This document shows, one piece after another, positions 6,814 through 52,948 of a DNA stretch of 64,000 nt. The notes below the pieces were generated by a model. That model had not been told where the DNA came from. It ran no database searches and saw only the letters and a list, made by a program, of their open reading frames with translations. How positions within the stretch are numbered: position 1 is the first letter of the stretch; every line of letters starts with the position of its first letter. This DNA is from a virus. The stretch spans positions 41-64,040 of the IMG/VR virus record IMGVR_UViG_3300037424_000665; one strand, given 5' to 3'. Both the position numbers and the translations under genes were made by a program.

Positions 6814-7484
6814 ACGTCGAATTTGAGATAACCCTGCGCTGTAACGCGGCTTGCGACTCCTGCTCGCGGCACTGTCACTATGGGATGTATGATGAAGCAT
6901 CGGACGTGACGATGGGCCAGGTCTCGCGGTTCATCGAGGAAGTCAAAGGTCATCCCGATATCGACATGATTCACGTCATGGGCGGCGAGCCTACGCTGCA
7001 TCCCGAATTCAATACGATTGTCTCGATGCTCAAATGCACCTTGCTCGATACCGGCAAGATCAAAAGACTCCAGATCGTCAGCAACGGTTTGATCCCTATT
7101 GACCCGGCGCTCGGTGTCGGCGTGTGCCTATCCCCGCCTGAGAAGTCTGCGAGGCATCGCTGCATGTTCGTAGCGCCGTGCGATACCGGCCAGGAATTGA
7201 AGGACTGCCCCGTCCCCCAGGATTGCGGCATCAGCTTCGGGGCCTACGGCTATTGGCCGTGCGGGGCCGGAGGCGCTATCTGCCGGCTGTTCGGCTTTTC
7301 GATGTACCATCGCATGACCATCCCCAAAGACGAGAGAGACTTTCCTTACGAGATGGCGATGTGCGCTTACTGCCAGGCGAAAGCCAAGATGTATCTGATG
7401 TGCAAGGACTTCGGCGAAATCAAGAGCATCAGCTTCCGCAAGGCGTTTCGGGAGTTCAATGCGAAGAAACTCAGGAGATATTGA
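6810..7484 (+). CDS. Radical SAM protein
   Basis: CNAACDSC (CxxxCxxC), MGGEPTLHP, SNG, Cys-rich C-terminus. Confidence 0.85.
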   Translation: MNVEFEITLRCNAACDSCSRHCHYGMYDEASDVTMGQVSRFIEEVKGHPDIDMIHVMGGEPTLHPEFNTIVSMLKCTLLDTGKIKRLQIVSNGLIPIDPALGVGVCLSPPEKSARHRCMFVAPCDTGQELKDCPVPQDCGISFGAYGYWPCGAGGAICRLFGFSMYHRMTIPKDERDFPYEMAMCAYCQAKAKMYLMCKDFGEIKSISFRKAFREFNAKKLRRY

Positions 7485-9444: not shown

Positions 9445-10233
9445 ATGAGCGTTGCCCGCAAATTCCGCCGTCAGCATTTGTCTTCCACGCCTATCGGCAA
9501 GGAGCCGCCGGTCCTGATTGTCAGGCCGCATAAACAGGAGGGCTTTACCTGCGAGGCCACGAGCCAGTTCCTGTCCAAAGCCTTCAAGCGGGGCATCGCC
9601 GACTACAAGTGCATGGAAGCCCGGACGCCTGACGTCGCCCGGAATCTCGCCATCCTGGAGTTTCTCAGTAATCCCATACACGCCAAAAAGACGCACCTGT
9701 TCTTCCTGGATGACGATTCGACGCCCTGGAATGATTTTGTTATCGAAAGGCTCCTGAGCCTGGATAAGCCCGTCATTGCCGGCGTGACGCCTATCTTCAG
9801 GAAGAAAGACGCCATCGACTTCAAAAAGATTCGGATGCTGATGCTCGGCGTTGTTCAAAATGAACCTGCCCAGATGGATTTGTATTGGTCGCCTATCCTG
9901 ATGAAAGCCGGCCATTTGGAGCATATCGGTATCGACGAACTGCCCAAGACGCCGTTTGTGGCCCATCGCACGGGAGGTACGTGCCTGCTGATTCGCCGTG
10001 ACGTTCTGGAAAAGCTCAAGCCGCCGTATCAGAAATTCGAGTTCGACGAGCAGCAGATCAAGCTCCTGCGGTCAGAGGACATCTACTTCGCCGATCAGAT
10101 ACGGGAGGCTGGATTCCCTATCTGGATCGACCCCGAGAGCATTTGTCATCACTTTCACGTCCTGGATATTTTGGACATGTTCGCCATAGCGATTCAGGCC
10201 AAAGAGATGGGCAAAACAGGGGAAAAAAGATAA
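9445..10233 (+). CDS. GT-A glycosyltransferase-like protein
   Basis: ARN, THLFFLDDD, GGTCLLIRRDVLE, SEDIYF, ICHH. Confidence 0.8.
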   Translation: MSVARKFRRQHLSSTPIGKEPPVLIVRPHKQEGFTCEATSQFLSKAFKRGIADYKCMEARTPDVARNLAILEFLSNPIHAKKTHLFFLDDDSTPWNDFVIERLLSLDKPVIAGVTPIFRKKDAIDFKKIRMLMLGVVQNEPAQMDLYWSPILMKAGHLEHIGIDELPKTPFVAHRTGGTCLLIRRDVLEKLKPPYQKFEFDEQQIKLLRSEDIYFADQIREAGFPIWIDPESICHHFHVLDILDMFAIAIQAKEMGKTGEKR

Positions 10234-45937: not shown

Positions 45938-46317
45938 CTTGATTACAACCAAAGAACGGTTTTTCGGGCTTCGATTGTATCTCGACTCGACCGGAGAGGC
46001 CGATGTTGATGAGGCTATTCTAAGCCTTTTCCACGACCATTATACCGGCTCGGGCGCGTTGGAAATCAGCCGGACGGATTCTCAGATCGTATTGGAATGG
46101 AATAAGAAACGGGGCAAGAGACTACAAGCCGTCGATACCGGGGTGCCCGTCAAAGAGGCACGGCAGGGTCAAAAGGCCCTTTTTGAGTAGGAGCACCATT
46201 TTGTCTGCGCGCGCAAAATGGTCCGTGTAAGGAATAATGGAGTATGACGCAGGAAGAATCAAGGATGAGGATCAAGGCACTTTTTTTGGCTTTGTATTTT
46301 GGCAGCACGGAGGCACT

Positions 46318-47487
46318 ATGGCGCGGATTCGGTACTTGAAGCCAGATTTTTTTCTCGACGAGGATCTCGCGGAGCACCCATTGGAAGTCAGAATGCTCTT
46401 CGCTGGTTTATGGTGCATCGCCGATAAGGCGGGAAGGCTCGAAGATCGTCCCAAGCGAATCAAGGCCATGGTCTTTCCGTATGATGATGGAATTGATATC
46501 GAAGCGTGCCTCGACGCCCTTACCCAGCCCAAGACAAGTTCGGGACGATCTTTTATTCGCCGTTACGTGGTCAATGGGCAAGGGTACATCGACATTCCCC
46601 AGTGGGAAAAGCATCAGAAGCCTCACAGGACGGAAAAAGAAAGTATCCTTCCAGGCCCAGAGGGACAAATTATTGATAACCCGCCATATCCAGGCCGTGC
46701 TATTCGCAAACAAGTGTATGAACGAGACAACTTCCTATGTCTCTATTGCGGAGAAGATTTATCAAAGGAACCCCGCAAGATATGTCTGGATCATGTCATT
46801 CCAATCACAATGAATGGTTCCAATCGAATGGACAATCTGGCAACAGCCTGCAAGAAGTGCAATGCAAAGAAGGCAGGAAAACTCGCAGAACAGGTTGGTA
46901 TGAAGAAGCTGGATGGTTTAGGGAACACCATTAGGGAAGCTACTCCCCCCACACCCCCCGATGGGCAACGGACAACGGACAATGGGGATGGGGATGGGGA
47001 TGGGGATGGGGAACCAGGATGTCAACACACCGTCAACGTACCGTCAACGGGGGATCAGACTAAACTACAAGAAGTGTCAACGTCAACATCATCTTCCCCA
47101 AAAGAAACCAAATCCCACAAAGGCAGTCCAGCCGACAGAATCCTTTCCGCTTGGCAGAAGCTCCCCCTACCCCCCGAGAAGAAACAATTCGGTGCCGCCG
47201 ACATCCTCGCCATCGAGCGGGCCATCTCGATTTTGGCCGGCGATTCTCAGGAACCCGTCCACGCGGGTATGATTTTGGAGGCCATCGAGAACTACCGCCA
47301 AGCCCTTTCCCTCTCAGACAGCCAGACCTACAAGCACAAGCTTCACCCCTGGCTGATGGAGCATGTTCGCAAGTATGTCTCGTACAATTTCGATATAGAT
47401 CACCACCGGGGCAGTAAATACCAGAAGACAGGCAAGACCGATACGATGGCCGAAATGGAGCGACTGAAAGCAAAAGGCGAGTTATGA
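46318..47487 (+). CDS. Phage replication initiator with internal HNH domain
   Basis: GGAGG RBS; MARIR.LKPDFF.DE.LA...LF.GLWC.ADK.GRL..RP; insert RD.F.C.YCG...DHVIP...G.N..DNL..AC..CN..K. Confidence 0.8.
   Translation: MARIRYLKPDFFLDEDLAEHPLEVRMLFAGLWCIADKAGRLEDRPKRIKAMVFPYDDGIDIEACLDALTQPKTSSGRSFIRRYVVNGQGYIDIPQWEKHQKPHRTEKESILPGPEGQIIDNPPYPGRAIRKQVYERDNFLCLYCGEDLSKEPRKICLDHVIPITMNGSNRMDNLATACKKCNAKKAGKLAEQVGMKKLDGLGNTIREATPPTPPDGQRTTDNGDGDGDGDGEPGCQHTVNVPSTGDQTKLQEVSTSTSSSPKETKSHKGSPADRILSAWQKLPLPPEKKQFGAADILAIERAISILAGDSQEPVHAGMILEAIENYRQALSLSDSQTYKHKLHPWLMEHVRKYVSYNFDIDHHRGSKYQKTGKTDTMAEMERLKAKGEL
47021..47087. repeat. Iteron-like GTCAAC repeats (putative origin)
   Basis: GTCAAC at 47021, 47032, 47043, 47076, 47082; preceded by (GGGGAT)n run. 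Confidence 0.5.
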
Positions 47488-47912
47488 CCGATCTGCAAGC
47501 CCACGAAATCATCGATGACTGCATCAAAGCCCATTGGCCGGCCTGGGACTTCAAAGGGCGGGAGTTGGCTGTTTGGGTCGAAGAGCTTCGCAAGTTCGAC
47601 TTCCACGCCGCCCGGGACGGCATAGATGCGTGCTACCGCGATTGGGACGGTAAGCAGTATCCCCGCATGAAGAGCATCTTGCGCTATATCCGCACGAGGA
47701 CTAAGAGCCGAGTCCAGGCGTCAGGCATCCGCGAACATTACAAGATTTGTCGGGCGGATGGCCGTTTGCGATGGCGACCGTTCTGGGGATTGTCCAACCT
47801 GCCCCAGCAAGACATCGAGGAAGGCGCAATAGCGAAATTAGAGCGGGCCAATATCATCGAACCCGGTCATTATATCGTTTGGCCCAAGCGAGAAGCCAAT
47901 GTGCCGTTCTGA
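47484..47912 (+). CDS. Putative helicase loader/inhibitor-like protein
   Basis: Follows initiator with ATGA overlap; W.EEL..FDF. Confidence 0.45.
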   Translation: MTDLQAHEIIDDCIKAHWPAWDFKGRELAVWVEELRKFDFHAARDGIDACYRDWDGKQYPRMKSILRYIRTRTKSRVQASGIREHYKICRADGRLRWRPFWGLSNLPQQDIEEGAIAKLERANIIEPGHYIVWPKREANVPF

Positions 47913-48027
47913 GATTTGTAGCACGATGAAGCCAAACGCAACGACGCACGCACGCATGCGCGCGAGGGACCCAGGCGGACAAAATGAAATGACAATTTTG
48001 GGACACAGTAAAAAAGGCGGTGACAAT

Positions 48028-48870
48028 ATGAGCGACATCATCCGCGTCTTTGTGAGACGGACCAGTATGACGCCGACGGACGATCTGGTGGTCGTGGGTG
48101 AGCCGCCTCTGTTCAAATTGCCGGACCTGCCCATCCATGTCTCAGTTGTCTTCAGCTGGGACATCGACCGTGCAGATGAGTTGGCTACGGCGTGGGCGGC
48201 GGTCTATGGGATTGACCGAGTATCGCTCGGGGGGCCTGCCCTGAACAACGTGAGACAGACGGGCGATCCGGACGACCCTTTCGTCCCAGGCCGCTACCTC
48301 AAGGCCGGCGTGACGATCACTTCGCGCGGCTGCCCGAAAAGTTGTCCCTGGTGCCTGGTGAGGAAACGAGAAGGCAACTTGCGGGAAATCAACATCGCCC
48401 CCGGCTGGATCGTCCAGGACAACAATCTACTGGCGTGCTCACGCGGGCATGTGGAGCGAGTCTTCGATATGCTTCGGCAGCAGAAGCGAGGCATTAAATT
48501 CTCGGGCGGTCTGGACATCGACTATTTGCAAGACTGGCACGTCAAGCTGCTCAAGAGTATCAAGGTCGATGAGCTGTGGGTGGCCTGCGACGCTGAACAA
48601 GACTTGGCCCGGATCGACAAAGCAGTGGATATGCTTAGCGACTTCTCCGTCGAGAAGAAACGTTGCTACGTGATGATCGGTTTCGGCGGCGAGACACCGG
48701 ACGAAGCTGAGCGGAGATGTGAAGCGGTTTACGACAAAGGGTTTTTGCCATTCGCTCAATTCTACCGACCGTCCGGAGGTTGGCGCAAAGTGCCTGATGA
48801 ATGGCGATTCGTACAATGGAAGTGGAGCCGGCCGGCAGCGTACCGAGCCAGAAAGGAAGCGACAGCATGA
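48028..48870 (+). CDS. Radical SAM-like protein
   Basis: TSRGCPKSCPWC; DNNLLA; FSGGLD; YVMIGF. Confidence 0.8.
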   Translation: MSDIIRVFVRRTSMTPTDDLVVVGEPPLFKLPDLPIHVSVVFSWDIDRADELATAWAAVYGIDRVSLGGPALNNVRQTGDPDDPFVPGRYLKAGVTITSRGCPKSCPWCLVRKREGNLREINIAPGWIVQDNNLLACSRGHVERVFDMLRQQKRGIKFSGGLDIDYLQDWHVKLLKSIKVDELWVACDAEQDLARIDKAVDMLSDFSVEKKRCYVMIGFGGETPDEAERRCEAVYDKGFLPFAQFYRPSGGWRKVPDEWRFVQWKWSRPAAYRARKEATA

Positions 48871-49427
48871 GACTTTCATTTTTCGTTCCCGGCGACGCGA
48901 AGAGCAGCGGCAGCAAGCGTGGTTTTTTCAACAAGAAAACCAACCGCGTGAACTTCGCGCCGGACAACCCGAAGCAGAAGGACTGGCAGGCGGCGGTGAA
49001 ATGGTTTGCTGTGCAGGCGGCGAATCGCATGGTCCCGCTGACTGAGCCCGCGATACTGAGCTGCCGGTTTTACCGAGAGCGGCCGGCGGGGCATTACCGA
49101 ACCGTGGGCGGACGAAGGAGCCGACTGGTGCACCCTCGCTATGAGCAAGCCAAACCAGGCACAAAGCCCGACGAATTAAAGCTCTGCCGAGCCGTCGAGG
49201 ACGCAATGAGTAAGGTCATCTACGCCGATGATGCGCTCCTGTGCGACCACCACATCAGCAAAAGGTATTGTGACGCCGAGCATCCGACGCCCGGCGTTGA
49301 AATCACTATCGAAACGTATGACGAAAGGAAGGAAACTTATGGCAACAAAGACCAAAGAACAACCGGCCATCAAGACGACGCACGAAACCCGGACGCTCAA
49401 ATGCAAACTGACGGACGAGGAAATTAG
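48867..49427 (+). CDS. rusA: RusA-family Holliday junction resolvase
   Basis: FFVPGDAKS.GSK; KPDELKL.RAVEDAM..VIYADD; SKRY. Confidence 0.8.
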   Translation: MRLSFFVPGDAKSSGSKRGFFNKKTNRVNFAPDNPKQKDWQAAVKWFAVQAANRMVPLTEPAILSCRFYRERPAGHYRTVGGRRSRLVHPRYEQAKPGTKPDELKLCRAVEDAMSKVIYADDALLCDHHISKRYCDAEHPTPGVEITIETYDERKETYGNKDQRTTGHQDDARNPDAQMQTDGRGN

Positions 49428-49730: not shown

Positions 49731-49967
49731 ATGCCCAAGATAAAAACAAATGTCACCAAGTGGCTGCCGGCTAAGGGCCAGTGGTTCAATGTGCACCTCA
49801 AGCGCAACAATCACCTGCATTCAGCGGGGCCGTTCAAGTGCGTTGATGTGGTGGTTTACGGCGACTACGTACAACAGATCGAAGCCGTGGACAGCGAGGG
49901 CGACCGCTGGCACTTTCCGCTGTCGGAGTTTCGATTCGAGCCGGCAGCAACGCAGAAAAAGACATGA
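49731..49967 (+). CDS. Hypothetical protein
   Basis: GGAGG RBS. Confidence 0.55.
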   Translation: MPKIKTNVTKWLPAKGQWFNVHLKRNNHLHSAGPFKCVDVVVYGDYVQQIEAVDSEGDRWHFPLSEFRFEPAATQKKT

Positions 49968-50008
49968 CTCGACTCGACAAGATAAGCCTTTTTTGAAAGG
50001 AGCACAAG

Positions 50009-50587
50009 ATGTATGAAATCAACGCAACGTACAAAGGTTTAGTACCGATGATGATGGACCGATTTGCCGACCCTTCCCAAACGGAGAGGCCGTCCAAGAA
50101 AAAGGCAAAAGGGCGCAATGAAGCGGAGATTCTCGCCAAACTGCACATGGACAAAAAAGGGGTTTTTGTTCCTTCCGACAATATCCGCATGATGCTAATT
50201 GGCAACAAGCATCGTCGCGGGGCAGCACAGATTTTAGGTTCAGACATGGAAGCGGCCAAAGGGACGAAATATCTATCGATTTGCAAGGGGTTGATTTGGG
50301 TTTTGGGGACCGACGACCCGATGAAAGTTTATATCGAGCCTCGTCGGAAAACGTATGACGACGTGGATGAGCGGTCGTTCCTCAACGCTACAGGCTCACG
50401 TTCTATGGCGTATCGGCCTATCATCAAGTTGCCTTGGTCGGTGTCTTTCATTATCCAGGTCACGGATGACAATATCGACCAGAGCTTCGTCCGGCAGTTG
50501 TTCGACGTGGCGGGCCTGCGGTGCGGAGTCTGCGCCTACGGCCCGACGTTTGGCCGGTGCATTATCTCGGAGTGGAAACAACGCTAA
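50009..50587 (+). CDS. Small RAMP/Cas7-like protein (candidate guide-RNA effector)
   Basis: N-terminal strand I.ATYKGLVPMMMDRF; YRPII.LPWSVSF.I; C-terminal Gly loop AGLRCGVCAYGPTFGRCII; directly followed by phased array. Confidence 0.55.
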   Translation: MYEINATYKGLVPMMMDRFADPSQTERPSKKKAKGRNEAEILAKLHMDKKGVFVPSDNIRMMLIGNKHRRGAAQILGSDMEAAKGTKYLSICKGLIWVLGTDDPMKVYIEPRRKTYDDVDERSFLNATGSRSMAYRPIIKLPWSVSFIIQVTDDNIDQSFVRQLFDVAGLRCGVCAYGPTFGRCIISEWKQR

Positions 50588-50589
50588 CA

Positions 50590-51345
50590 GAACGCCAAAG
50601 GAAGGGACGAGACTTGAGAAGAAGTGAGCAGAACTGAGCCGAGCAGAACGCCAAAGGACCCGATGGGACCGGACTTGATACGACCAGAACCGAACAGAAC
50701 ACTAAAAGATACGAAAGGACCCGAAGGAAACAGAAGCGACCAAAGAAGAATTGAACGCAAGAAGATCGGTGTTGAAGGGAGAAGAACCGAGACGAACCGA
50801 CCAGAGTAGAGCAGAACGCCAAAGGATGTGACCTGAGTGGAAAGAAATAGAGCACAGCAGAACAGAACGCTAACAGAGTGGACCCGAGACGATATGAGAC
50901 GATTCGAACAGAATCGAACGGAACGCCACTGGAGCGGACGAGATACGAGGCGATTCGAACAGAGCCGAACAGAGCCGAACAGAACACAAGGGGACGGGAC
51001 CAGAAAAGACCAGAACCGAACAGAACGCTATTTGATTTGAAGGGAAGTGACCCGAAAAGACAAGATGTGATGGGAATTGACTTGACCAGAGAAGAACACA
51101 AGGAGAAAAGAGAAGATCAGAGTTGAGTTGAGCGGGAAAGAATAGAGAAAAATAGAACGCAAGAGGAATCAAGAAGAGCCGATTGGAAAGGAGGGGAGTT
51201 GAGTTGACATGAGCAGAATAGAACGCGAATCACCAGAAGAACTGAGCAGAAGTGAGCAGAACTGAGTAGGAAAGAAGCGATCAGAACCGAACGCCAAGGG
51301 ATCGGAATAGAGCGGAAACAAAAAGACCAAAACAGAAAGGAACAC
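50590..51345 (+). repeat. Phased pentamer array: 13 units of GAACRC-HANNN-(GANNN)6-12
   Basis: 14 anchors; 109 of 120 internal pentamers begin GA, the other 11 differ by one base; 12 of 13 anchor spacings are 5n+1. Confidence 0.95.
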
Positions 51346-51348
51346 AAG

Positions 51349-51627
51349 ATGAACATGGAAATCACAGAAGCCAGAGCAGCACAATTTGACAAACTCGAAA
51401 ATCAGGCATGCGTATTGTTGCAGGAGTACCTTGAGGGCAAGCGGACGGGCGGGGACGATATTGTAACCGCCCGCTGCGTGCTCAATGTCATCCGGGGCAA
51501 CCGCCAGACGACTACAGCACGGGATGCCCTGAGATATGCGATGGTCAGCGACTTGGGCGACCCGAAGGTGCGTGAAAGATATGTGAAGGCGACCGAGCCT
51601 GAAATCAAAAAACTGCTCAAAGCATAG
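51349..51627 (+). CDS. Hypothetical protein directly after array
   Basis: RBS overlaps last array anchor. Confidence 0.7.
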   Translation: MNMEITEARAAQFDKLENQACVLLQEYLEGKRTGGDDIVTARCVLNVIRGNRQTTTARDALRYAMVSDLGDPKVRERYVKATEPEIKKLLKA

Positions 51628-51756
51628 GGCCGGGCCTATCCAAGAGACAGACCGACCGCTTAGTGCCGGCACAAGGCAAAGGCGGCCGTTAGCCGATGAA
51701 TAGGGTGTGGGCGAATGGCCCAAACAAACAATTTCAAACAGGAAGGAAAACCGAGC

Positions 51757-52047
51757 ATGGGCTGGCAAATTGGCGACAAAATCAGGTTTGCAGACGAGCG
51801 CGGGACATACATAGTCCGAGCAGCCAGTCCGCGTTATCTGGTCTGCACCAGGCCGTATAATTTCAAACGGACTGTATTCTATACGATTGTAGATTTAGTG
51901 GTCGAGATTCGTGGTACAGAGAATCTGATTTTCGGCTTGGGTGCTGAGACGGATCGCCAGTGCTGGGAAATGCTCGTTCGCATATTGACAGGCGAGAGCG
52001 AAATCTCGCACCGCAACAGAGTGCCATTACAGATACGAAAGGACTGA
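51757..52047 (+). CDS. Conserved hypothetical protein
   Basis: GDKIRF.DER..Y.VRA...RYLVCTRP; RG.ENL.FG.G. Confidence 0.65.
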   Translation: MGWQIGDKIRFADERGTYIVRAASPRYLVCTRPYNFKRTVFYTIVDLVVEIRGTENLIFGLGAETDRQCWEMLVRILTGESEISHRNRVPLQIRKD

Positions 52048-52049
52048 GC

Positions 52050-52241
52050 ATGGACTGGATTATTGAAAACTGGGATGAGATCGTTAAGGCCGTTGGTCTG
52101 ATTATTGCAGCGGCAAGCATCATCGTGAGACTAACGCCGACGCTCCGCGACGATTCGGCGCTGCTGCCTGTCATCAAATTCCTGGGCAAGTACATAGCCC
52201 TGGACAAATACGGGACCAACGAAGTCGAGAGGCCGAAATGA
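52050..52241 (+). CDS. Holin-like small membrane protein
   Basis: MDWIIENW; one TM; TPT.RDD. Confidence 0.6.
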   Translation: MDWIIENWDEIVKAVGLIIAAASIIVRLTPTLRDDSALLPVIKFLGKYIALDKYGTNEVERPK

Positions 52242-52948
52242 GCGATATAAAAGCAATCAAACCGTTGGGGCGCAAGGCTTACGGCAGCATAGGACACTTG
52301 CCGAACAGCCGCTTAGGTCCGGGCGATCACGCTGTCCCGGATGGCTGTGCTAAAATCTGTACGCAGAAGGTCCGCGATAAACACGATCTCATTGTCGTGC
52401 AGGAGAAGCTGGATGGTTCGTGTGTTGCGGTGGCTCTGCTTAATGGACGTTTGTATCCGTTGGGTCGTGCTGGATGGTCTGCGGAGTCCTCGCCTTACGA
52501 ACAGCATCAGCTCTTTGCGCAATGGGTTTGGTGCAACGAGGACAGGTTTCGTGCCGTTCTTCAAGAGGGGGAGCGCATCGTTGGCGAGTGGTTGGCGCAG
52601 GCACACGGGACTATCTACGATCTGAGCGTGAACGAACCGTTCGCGGCTTTCGATATCATGTGCGAGGATAAGCGGTTAAGCTACCACGTTTTTCAAGAGC
52701 GAATTGAGAGGCGCTTTTGCACGCCGACGCTGCTCCATGAAGGCGGTGCCATCTCCGTCCCAGAGGCCATGAAGTTGCACGAACAGTGGCACTGGCCTTG
52801 TGACCAAGTCGAGGGGATTGTTTATCGCGTCCACCGCAAGGGGCAAGTCGATTTTCTGGCCAAGTGGGTGCGGTTCGATAAGATTGACGGCAAATATCTT
52901 CCAGAGGTGAGCGGTAAAGACGCTGTTTGGAATTGGAGGCCGCGATGA
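52238..52948 (+). CDS. ATP-dependent RNA ligase family protein
   Basis: QEKLDGS (motif I KxDG), GEW, FDI, EGIVYR, K. Confidence 0.8.
   Translation: MSDIKAIKPLGRKAYGSIGHLPNSRLGPGDHAVPDGCAKICTQKVRDKHDLIVVQEKLDGSCVAVALLNGRLYPLGRAGWSAESSPYEQHQLFAQWVWCNEDRFRAVLQEGERIVGEWLAQAHGTIYDLSVNEPFAAFDIMCEDKRLSYHVFQERIERRFCTPTLLHEGGAISVPEAMKLHEQWHWPCDQVEGIVYRVHRKGQVDFLAKWVRFDKIDGKYLPEVSGKDAVWNWRPR

Follow-up and report, generated by a model that had tools for sequence, protein, structure and literature searches.

A probable VIPR cassette with GA-NNN guide pentamers in a 64-kb phage

VIPR (Viral Interference Programmable Repeat) systems were first reported in 2026 (10.64898/2026.04.26.720920). According to the text of that preprint, the Vipr protein oligomerises on guide RNAs (vrRNAs) of 9-16 YNNGG repeats, with one protomer per repeat. 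The GGY bases are sequestered, NN pairs with double-stranded DNA, and every third target base is skipped. Such guides silence rival phages and satellites, and seven types are described. In its published form, VIPR thus has a non-contiguous code, where a periodic one-base skip makes the guides blind to the codon wobble base. Here, we describe a related locus in a stretch of 64,000 nucleotides (nt) of viral DNA, which corresponds to positions 41 to 64,040 of the IMG/VR record IMGVR_UViG_3300037424_000665 and is called the window below. In this locus, the gene for a 192-residue protein is followed by an array of GA-NNN pentamers. Positions 49966-51627 are, with good probability, a VIPR cassette of this 64-kb phage, composed of vipr, 13 head-to-tail vrRNA units and a 92-residue partner, all on the + strand, and with a putative role in the silencing of rival phages. 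The carrier is a virus record of 64,140 bp, and the related IMG/VR contigs have phage genes and direct terminal repeats.

The closest known system is the type II VIPR of the Escherichia phage SUSP1 (Vipr PDB 36pp; vap1; four vrRNAs), as presented in the texts of 10.64898/2026.04.26.720920, 10.64898/2026.04.26.720927 and 10.64898/2026.10.15.759431. In both cases, a phage carries a stand-alone RAMP of about 200 residues, whose glycine-rich loop (G-loop) ends in P-x-F-G-R and which has a thumb arginine (R136 here, R138 in SUSP1). Both have guides of about 9-16 part-fixed pentamers beside the gene, as well as a small further gene, which is accessory in SUSP1 and a candidate for that role here. They also share the absence of self-targeting and the presence of family-level matches in the genes of rival phages, including VIPR cassettes. 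By contrast, two bases (GA) are fixed here and three (GGY) in SUSP1, and three bases instead of two are variable. Moreover, there is no structured or pseudoknotted 3′ tail here, and nothing but a register shift of one base parts the 13 head-to-tail units. The G-loop has the triad A-Y-G here and D-W-R there, and the evidence favours a contiguous reading over a 1-nt skip. Finally, the candidate accessory protein of the window shows no sequence relationship to that of SUSP1, and no DNA-binding fold can be recognised in it.

Repeats other than YNNGG are also on record. For instance, NNNGG, YNNNG and NNNNG repeats appear in the methods of 10.64898/2026.04.26.720920, and GAC/NN, CAC/NN, WGT/NN and TGH/NN are listed in the text of 10.64898/2026.10.21.760802. 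The present array resembles these published non-canonical arrays in combining the pentamer period with a different constant part, and NNNGG likewise has two fixed and three variable bases. In addition, the legend of fig. S18 of the first preprint mentions 'staggered arrays', whose vrRNAs overlap by 1 nt, and this stagger probably describes the architecture seen here, where units are spaced by 5n+1 nt. Since the repeat definition in the text of the discovery paper allows 'a related consensus' besides GGY/NN, GA-NNN marks a variant and not an exclusion from VIPR. An earlier note on this DNA, made from its letters alone, had pointed to VIPR systems with GGY/NN pentamers, correctly as the text of the discovery preprint shows, and had suggested that a GA-based code would be a distinct variant; it is indeed distinct from the published GGY/NN unit. 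The kind of system is therefore known, and the clade to which the locus belongs is sizeable and unannotated. It is set apart by GA-NNN, register-shifted units without tails, a characteristic G-loop, a candidate accessory gene of its own and, probably, contiguous reading.

The Vipr protein

The 192-residue protein has no match in Pfam, and PHROGs assigns it to PHROG 4652, of unknown function. Its AlphaFold2 model has a predicted local distance difference test score (pLDDT) of 92.6. In a Foldseek comparison with the PDB, this model matches Cas7, Csm3 and Cmr4 subunits of type VII and type III effectors (E about 2e-5). VIA-align, run over 48,161 chains, gives Csm3 (Z 12.0), Cmr4 (11.7), type VII Cas7 (11.0) and type IV Cas7 (10.0), with CRISPR RAMPs throughout its top 21 rows. 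The best cluster in AlphaFold DB is X1U2U4 (E 1.1e-11; template-modelling scores 0.74/0.80), which is the protein taken as 'the reported Vipr' in the text of 10.64898/2026.10.21.760802. A sequence search of the PDB also finds the SUSP1 Vipr chain 36pp_D, with E 1.2e-4 for the single sequence and 9.6e-8 for a profile of 77 homologues, in an alignment restricted to the C-terminal 60 residues that includes the thumb arginine and the G-loop. These comparisons show that the protein, initially described from its letters as RAMP-like, has a Cas7-type RAMP fold and is a member of the Vipr family.

The likeness to the Cas7 backbones of class 1 CRISPR effectors (Csm3, Cmr4, type VII and type IV Cas7; Z 10-12) covers the RRM/RAMP fold, the G-loop and the thumb. 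It would extend to the use of one subunit per fixed number of guide bases and of flipped-out bases at a fixed period. Nevertheless, the period is 5 here and 6 in class 1 effectors, and only here do fixed bases interrupt the guide information. There is also no repeat-spacer array: direct repeats of about 23-50 nt would be expected in class 1 CRISPR, whereas the sole recurring element here is a boundary of 6-11 nt. No other cas genes are found in the cassette, whose neighbours are RusA, HNH and RNA ligase genes and unknowns; this result does not extend to all 64 kb.

Among cultured phages, the nearest homologues are found in the Pseudomonas phages LESphi2 (OQ594955, P21_9) and Medea1 (MW862109, Medea1_0009), with 31% and 25% identity, respectively. 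In contrast to the array of the window, theirs are canonical GGY/NN arrays, in which the guides have hairpin tails, and the G-loop sequences are C-D-Y-R-P and C-E-Y-R-P. Both VIPR loci carry only the annotation 'hypothetical protein'. In LESphi2 (L124, 2030-3085), three GGY/NN hairpin-tailed guides lie between a sigma-factor gene and vipr, adjoining CI/Cro; in Medea1 (L134, 1968-3215), there is one guide downstream, after an antirepressor gene.

The alignment with SUSP1 Vipr places R136 on R138, C172 on C173, and A176-Y177-G178 on D177-W178-R179. As the text of 10.64898/2026.04.26.720927 describes the SUSP1 contacts, G1 is held by H17 and D177, G2 lies between R138 and W178, and Y3 sits in a pocket with R179 and C173. 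The G-loop triad is acidic-aromatic-Arg in three GGY readers (SUSP1, LESphi2 and Medea1) and Ala-Tyr-Gly in the GA-NNN readers, among which A176 is conserved in at least 90% of the clade and Y177 and G178 are invariant. We infer from these sequences that the loss of the arginine of the pyrimidine pocket may free position 3 as a guide base.

The GA-NNN array and its linkage to vipr

The array extends over 50590-51345. The architecture read by the earlier note is reproduced in full: the array starts 2 nt after the stop of the 192-residue gene (GAACGC at 50590, the stop ending at 50587), and GAACRC occurs at all 14 positions given for it, which bound 13 units. The spacings are 56, 51, 56, 61, 51, 56, 61, 41, 71, 61, 66, 68 and 51 nt, and the irregular one (68) holds an extra degenerate anchor, GAATCA, at 51227-51232. 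When the 13 terminal GAACR pentamers are left out, 109 of the 120 internal pentamers start with GA, and with every in-phase pentamer counted the figure is 122 of 133; the remaining 11 are each one substitution away from GA. Each unit opens with five bases, of which the second is A and the first mostly a base other than G (CAAAG, TAAAA and AAGAA, for instance), continues with 7-13 pentamers in a single register and closes with a terminal GAAC(G/A). One extra C follows each unit; thus, the next unit is one base out of register and the spacings take the form 5n+1.

The features of the cassette are given below, with G001 standing for a 95%-identical IMG/VR phage.

49966..49985, +, vestigial upstream mini-array, phased GACTC GACTC GACAA GATAA; starts at the stop codon of the upstream gene
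49995..50008, +, unit-end-like motif GAAAG GAGCA C AAG, as read from the sequence; also the ribosome-binding site (RBS) context of vipr
50009..50587, +, vipr, stand-alone Cas7-like RAMP, 192 residues; TAA at 50585-50587; G-loop C172-G-V-C-A176-Y177-G178-P-T-F-G-R183; thumb arginine R136
50590..50595, +, first boundary: terminal-type pentamer GAACG and an extra C, which puts the following pentamers one base out of register
50596..50650, +, guide unit 1, 11 pentamers; triplets AAG AGG CGA CTT GAA AGT GCA ACT and tail; absent from G001
50652..50701, +, guide unit 2, 10 pentamers; absent from G001
50703..50757, +, guide unit 3, 11 pentamers; absent from G001
50759..50818, +, guide unit 4, 12 pentamers; absent from G001
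50820..50869, +, guide unit 5, 10 pentamers; absent from G001
50871..50925, +, guide unit 6, 11 pentamers; triplets ACA GTG CCC GAC TAT GAC TTC and tail; fused to extra 5′ pentamers in G001
50927..50986, +, guide unit 7, 12 pentamers; the versions of G001 and of a soil run differ by whole pentamers (+GAGGT, -10 nt)
50988..51027, +, guide unit 8, 8 pentamers, about 4 of them variable; identical in G001
51029..51098, +, guide unit 9, 14 pentamers, the longest unit; identical in G001
51100..51159, +, guide unit 10, 12 pentamers; 2 substitutions relative to G001
51161..51225, +, guide unit 11, 13 pentamers; 2 substitutions relative to G001
51226..51233, +, irregular junction C GAATCA C, with the extra GAATCA at 51227-51232; the sole departure from 5n+1 spacing
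51234..51293, +, guide unit 12, 12 pentamers; identical in G001
51295..51344, +, guide unit 13, 10 pentamers; its end merges into the RBS of the next gene; identical in G001
51349..51627, +, predicted all-helical protein of 92 residues, candidate Vipr accessory protein (vap), on the basis of synteny

The periodicity is strong. In the window array, GA follows GA at a lag of 5 in 98 cases, against 27.5 +/- 4.5 (maximum 42) in 500 dinucleotide-preserving shuffles, and at lags of 3, 4, 6, 7 and 8 the counts are 4-14. Purines would make up 72% of the array RNA; its folding does not exceed that of shuffled sequences (z -0.12), and no structured 3′ tail is found in it. It has no match in Rfam and, hence, no hammerhead. 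Neither a promoter-like nor a terminator-like site was detected between vipr and the 92-residue gene. As noted from the letters alone, no long open reading frame (ORF) is maintained on the + strand across the array. Two long ORFs run through it on the minus strand (50562-51101, 179 residues, and 51169-51768, 199 residues) as an effect of composition, since stop codons are scarce opposite a purine-rich strand; gene callers could misannotate them as genes. The motif at 49995-50008, ahead of vipr, recurs nearly letter for letter at 51335-51348, ahead of the 92-residue gene. Upstream of vipr, a low-depth contig of 151 nt from run X1, the probable source sample, aligns at window position 49961 and has more GA pentamers there (GACTC GACTT GATAG GACTC GACTT GACGC), and may come from a co-existing variant whose upstream array is longer.

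The same organisation is found across a clade. The 192-residue protein has at least 118 homologues, all metagenomic, with 47-83% identity, and 96 relative loci were fetched from IMG/VR, GTDB genomes and JGI metagenomes. The expectation that homologous genes would be followed by phased pentamer arrays is borne out, as a GA lag-5 array lies directly after vipr and on the same strand in 94 of the 96 loci, and on the opposite strand in none. A second array is present just upstream of vipr in about a fifth of the loci. The unit grammar was derived from 408 well-bounded units of 85 loci, with 4206 pentamers. Of these, 95% have G at position 1 and 97% have A at position 2, and positions 3-5 carry 0.08, 0.01 and 0.00 bits. 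The commonest unit size is 9-12 GA pentamers. Units are separated by the six bases C-A(82%)-A(100%)-N-N-N, and their last two pentamers are conserved, GA-A-C-A/T followed by GA-A-C/A-G/A/T; the conserved part of unit ends consists of two to four low-complexity pentamers (GAACA GAACG) and C. Both the grammar and the linkage to the gene hold down to 45% protein identity.

The 92-residue gene is the other constant member of the locus. A homologue lies directly 3′ of the array in 70 of the 96 loci; where 1400 nt or more of downstream sequence are available, the figure is 43 of 48. In four loci, the gene is upstream instead. In contrast, RusA and other neighbours are common to three loci at most. 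This synteny delimits the cassette as vipr, the array and the 92-residue gene. The AlphaFold2 model of the 92-residue protein has four helices (pLDDT 69); searches of Pfam, of known folds and of the atlas gave no match for this protein, and nothing connects it with the published vap1-6.

Reading of the variable bases

About 470 distinct guides of the clade were decoded under many rules, with their own pentamer-shuffled and order-reversed versions as controls. The target database of 0.86 Mb comprised the window, ten whole related IMG/VR records and metagenome loci, with the arrays masked. Here, only the rule 'positions 3-5, skip 0' gives an excess of local matches. In comparison with 25 shuffles, there are 5 real matches with a score of at least 17 (shuffled mean 0.92, maximum 4) and 4 with a score of at least 18 (mean 0.28, maximum 2), and the best score is 21 for the real and 18 for the shuffled guides. 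Skips of 1, 2 and 3 give no real matches at a score of at least 17, and none of the two-base rules differs from its controls. No signal is seen when eleven rules are scored over whole guides against 0.6 Mb, because the conserved tail pentamers dilute the score; it is the local scoring of the variable part that yields the skip-0 signal. Likewise, a six-frame peptide search with frame-0 translations of the guides gives no excess over shuffles, since the guides are not all codon-aligned and peptides of 8-10 residues are too noisy. The idea, put forward in the earlier note, that the variable bases spell a gapped target finds no support in these tests: no rule with a skip showed a signal, and three consecutive bases are favoured.

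The strongest match is that of a guide of locus L025 to locus L067, which covers 29 of 33 consecutive bases (E 9e-6) and includes 10 of 12 bases at N3, 9 of 12 at N4 and 11 of 12 at N5. The same guide matches the equivalent site in the IMG/VR phage L123 at 29 of 36 bases and the copy of the gene in L025 itself at 23 of 36. The matched site, in the 3′ part of the gene just upstream of the L067 and L123 VIPR loci, encodes WHA(K/R)MI(K/Q)YYMN. The mismatches fall mainly at the wobble base of this gene, which corresponds to guide position 4; thus, the guide is not codon-aligned. A gene of 122-165 residues with the motif WHAKMIKYYM and no Pfam or PHROG family is found just upstream of many cassettes of the clade (L069 4626-4994, L025 1253-1750, L123 ~7044-7075 on the minus strand). 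As judged from these alignments, it would be the best-supported guide target.

Other family-level matches are found in the 92-residue genes of rival cassettes. With a score of at least 12, there are 23 real matches against 13.8 in the mean of six shuffles and, with a score of at least 15, 2 against 0.2. These matches cover 13-21 consecutive bases at the invariant NRQT and DPK..YV.AT motifs, on both strands, and guides of two different phages match one identical site. The vipr genes of rivals are not enriched as guide targets.

The variable bases also behave as copies of coding sequence might. Homologous guides were compared in a strict set of pairs, as loosely defined pairs are dominated by chance. 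For instance, the guides of L008 and L014 both spell F-T-D-P-P-Y and are distinguished by one Thr/Ala change and four third-base changes that are synonymous; DPPY is the motif of N6-adenine/N4-cytosine DNA methyltransferases. Similarly, a guide of L005 spells WYVEFRDHEIK and one of L067 spells WYIDFRDNDIK. Clearly homologous guides from different loci thus differ in the way that coding sequences do. In addition, stop triplets are depleted among the N3N4N5 groups (125 observed against 197 expected), and none is present among the 107 variable triplets of the window. Across neighbouring triplets, stops are found at 102 of every 1000 junctions, compared with 127 for triplets i and i+2, 125 for i and i+3, and 134 in reversed order, and the bootstrap 95% interval of the difference excludes zero. 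Such a depletion is expected only if N5 and the next N3 adjoin in a coding target.

From these family-wide statistics, N3N4N5 would seem to pair with three consecutive target bases, without a skip, and we favour this reading to a moderate degree. Contiguous reading also fits the change of the G-loop triad from (D/E)-(W/Y)-R to A-Y-G.

An alternative is that this VIPR keeps the published rule, with pairing by two of the three variable bases (N4N5 or N3N4), one target base skipped per repeat and the third variable base left unconstrained. This skip rule is the only one shown experimentally for any VIPR in the text of 10.64898/2026.04.26.720920, and differences between codon-aligned close guides are mostly on N5, as would be seen at a free position. 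Nevertheless, the N5 differences between the L008 and L014 guides are all synonymous, one of them in a two-fold codon. Positions 3, 4 and 5 are equally variable, all three match in the best hits, such as that of L025 to L067, and the matches to rival 92-residue genes run for 13-21 bases without a break. Furthermore, stops are depleted across N5 and the next N3. The two-base rules themselves gave no excess over shuffles, in tests weakened by their fewer informative positions. Overall, we regard retention of the published rule as unlikely.

A mechanism may be outlined by analogy with the SUSP1 VIPR. One Vipr protomer would bind each pentamer, holding G1-A2 and presenting N3-N5 for pairing, and the register break and the non-G first pentamer would end each filament and so define each guide. 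If the bases are read contiguously, the canonical 5:3 register between guide and target would be kept, with the base that canonical VIPR skips now being read; in same-sense notation, the canonical 'x N4 N5' would become 'N3 N4 N5'. The likely function would be to silence genes of rival phages, including the 92-residue gene of rival VIPR cassettes, with a guide set that would turn over unit by unit at the vipr-proximal end. In its widest form, to which we assign an even chance, the proposal is that GA-NNN VIPR represents a second recognition code, in which G-A is hidden and three consecutive bases are read in a gapless manner that is blind to codon phase. The 1-nt skip would then be a property of one branch, and guide banks would be renewed unit by unit at the vipr-proximal end, which hints at polarised replacement.

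Several observations weigh against these proposals. Two-base rules have fewer informative positions and, consequently, lower statistical power, which leaves some probability to a reading of N3N4 with N5 free. The skip-0 signal itself was obtained with a small database and consists of one strong hit and a few partial ones, and the enrichment in rival 92-residue genes was judged against six shuffles only. G1 remains conserved even though D177, the residue that reads it in SUSP1, is an alanine here; thus, the mapping from residues to bases is not simple. The sequencing runs that hold the array sequence are DNA runs only. As for novelty, neither the name GA-NNN nor a targeting rule with three variable bases occurs in the VIPR preprint texts, and figs S17 and S18 and data S4 of the discovery preprint, which are outside that scope, may already show the class. 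Finally, the suggestion that guides are aimed at competing phages holds at the family level, for L025 against L067 and L123 and for the rival 92-residue genes, but not for the 13 guides of the window, whose decoding and comparison with the collections searched gave no credible foreign target above shuffled background.

The array might instead act as DNA, in the form of phased protein-binding sites (iteron- or centromere-like) for the 92-residue protein or a host factor, with the RAMP gene as a mere neighbour. The DNA-only origin of the runs would agree with this, as would the lack of a promoter-like site in the array and the company of the 92-residue gene, which directly follows it in 70 of 96 loci. 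However, the arrays of 94 loci all lie on the same strand as vipr, and the linked protein is homologous to one solved in complex with a pentamer-repeat RNA. Coding-like variable bases that match the genes of other phages are likewise not expected of protein-binding DNA repeats, and this explanation is highly improbable. A decaying or selfish simple repeat (a slippage microsatellite) or a translated low-complexity protein, either without guide function, can practically be discarded: there are pentamer-sized indels between strains and long minus-strand ORFs, but NNN is near-random while GA is 95-97% fixed (4206 pentamers, 85 loci), unit grammar and gene linkage persist in loci whose proteins are as little as 45% identical, no reading frame can be maintained through a period of 5 with +1 shifts, and the minus-strand ORFs reflect purine richness.

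In print, then, VIPR skips, and the GA-NNN clade, with at least 118 proteins and about 90 of them with arrays, keeps the protein and the five-base rhythm, fixes two bases and seems to read the other three. If this is true, the clade provides a natural test of which residues of Vipr determine the code (D/E-W/Y-R as opposed to A-Y-G). It would also offer a denser guide, with 3 informative bases in 5 compared with 2 in 5, of interest for programmable DNA binding. In addition, the compact format of the array, without structured tails and with one-base-shift boundaries, makes it a testable question how guides are measured and cut.

Guides of the window, their turnover and neighbouring genes

The 13 guides of the window have no match above shuffles in the window or in the 95%-identical phage G001, and thus no self-targeting, and they have no match in rival 92-residue genes. 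A degenerate-codon scan of IMG/VR with unit 6 and a scan with the FTDPPY guide of L008 gave nothing, with queries that included the tail triplets, and wobble-degenerate scans of IMG/VR with units 9 and 11 gave nothing either. Two sets of exact hits were set aside. An 18-mer of unit 6 has six exact hits in IMG/VR, each of which falls on the catalytic DxD motif in a Poly_A_pol_cat (PF19244) gene without a PHROG family. These genes belong to giant viruses of eukaryotes, about 1-2 chance hits are expected per 18-mer, and we regard the hits as chance. An exact 20-mer hit of unit 12, in a baseplate gene of a phage with 31% guanine plus cytosine, is best read as chance, as the guide is internally repetitive and the phage ecologically remote.

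Guide content differs between near-identical phages. The flanks of G001 are 91-97% identical to the window and its Vipr protein is identical. The two arrays have eight distal units in common, apart from a few substitutions and the gain or loss of whole pentamers, and the place of the five vipr-proximal units of the window is taken in G001 by two other units and an extension of unit 6. Contigs from independent soil-metagenome runs resemble G001, in that 50588-50797 is missing, GAGGT is inserted after 50946 and 10 nt are absent at 50956. Thus, guide sets change by whole units and whole pentamers, most of them next to vipr, and such pairs of phages offer a way to ask how guide sets change.

Upstream of the cassette, all on the + strand, there are genes for a 416-residue protein with an HNH endonuclease domain (46237-47487), a 323-residue protein with a weak radical-SAM CxxxCxxC match below the Pfam cut-off (47899-48870) and a RusA-type Holliday junction resolvase (48801-49427). 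Downstream, 600 nt from the cassette, lies a gene for a 236-residue RNA ligase with a KxDG motif (52238-52948, +; PF09414, E 1.3e-17), which is probably an unrelated neighbour, since no homologue is found near the other 96 VIPR loci.

Two related loci depart from the usual arrangement. In G010 (L014/L122, IMGVR_UViG_3300022538_000700, 34-530), an in-frame TAA interrupts vipr and the GA array persists, which may reflect a decaying cassette or a sequencing error. In L053, a third GA-phased array lies at 9591-9760, about 1.2 kb beyond the main array and away from vipr, and may be a solo guide array.

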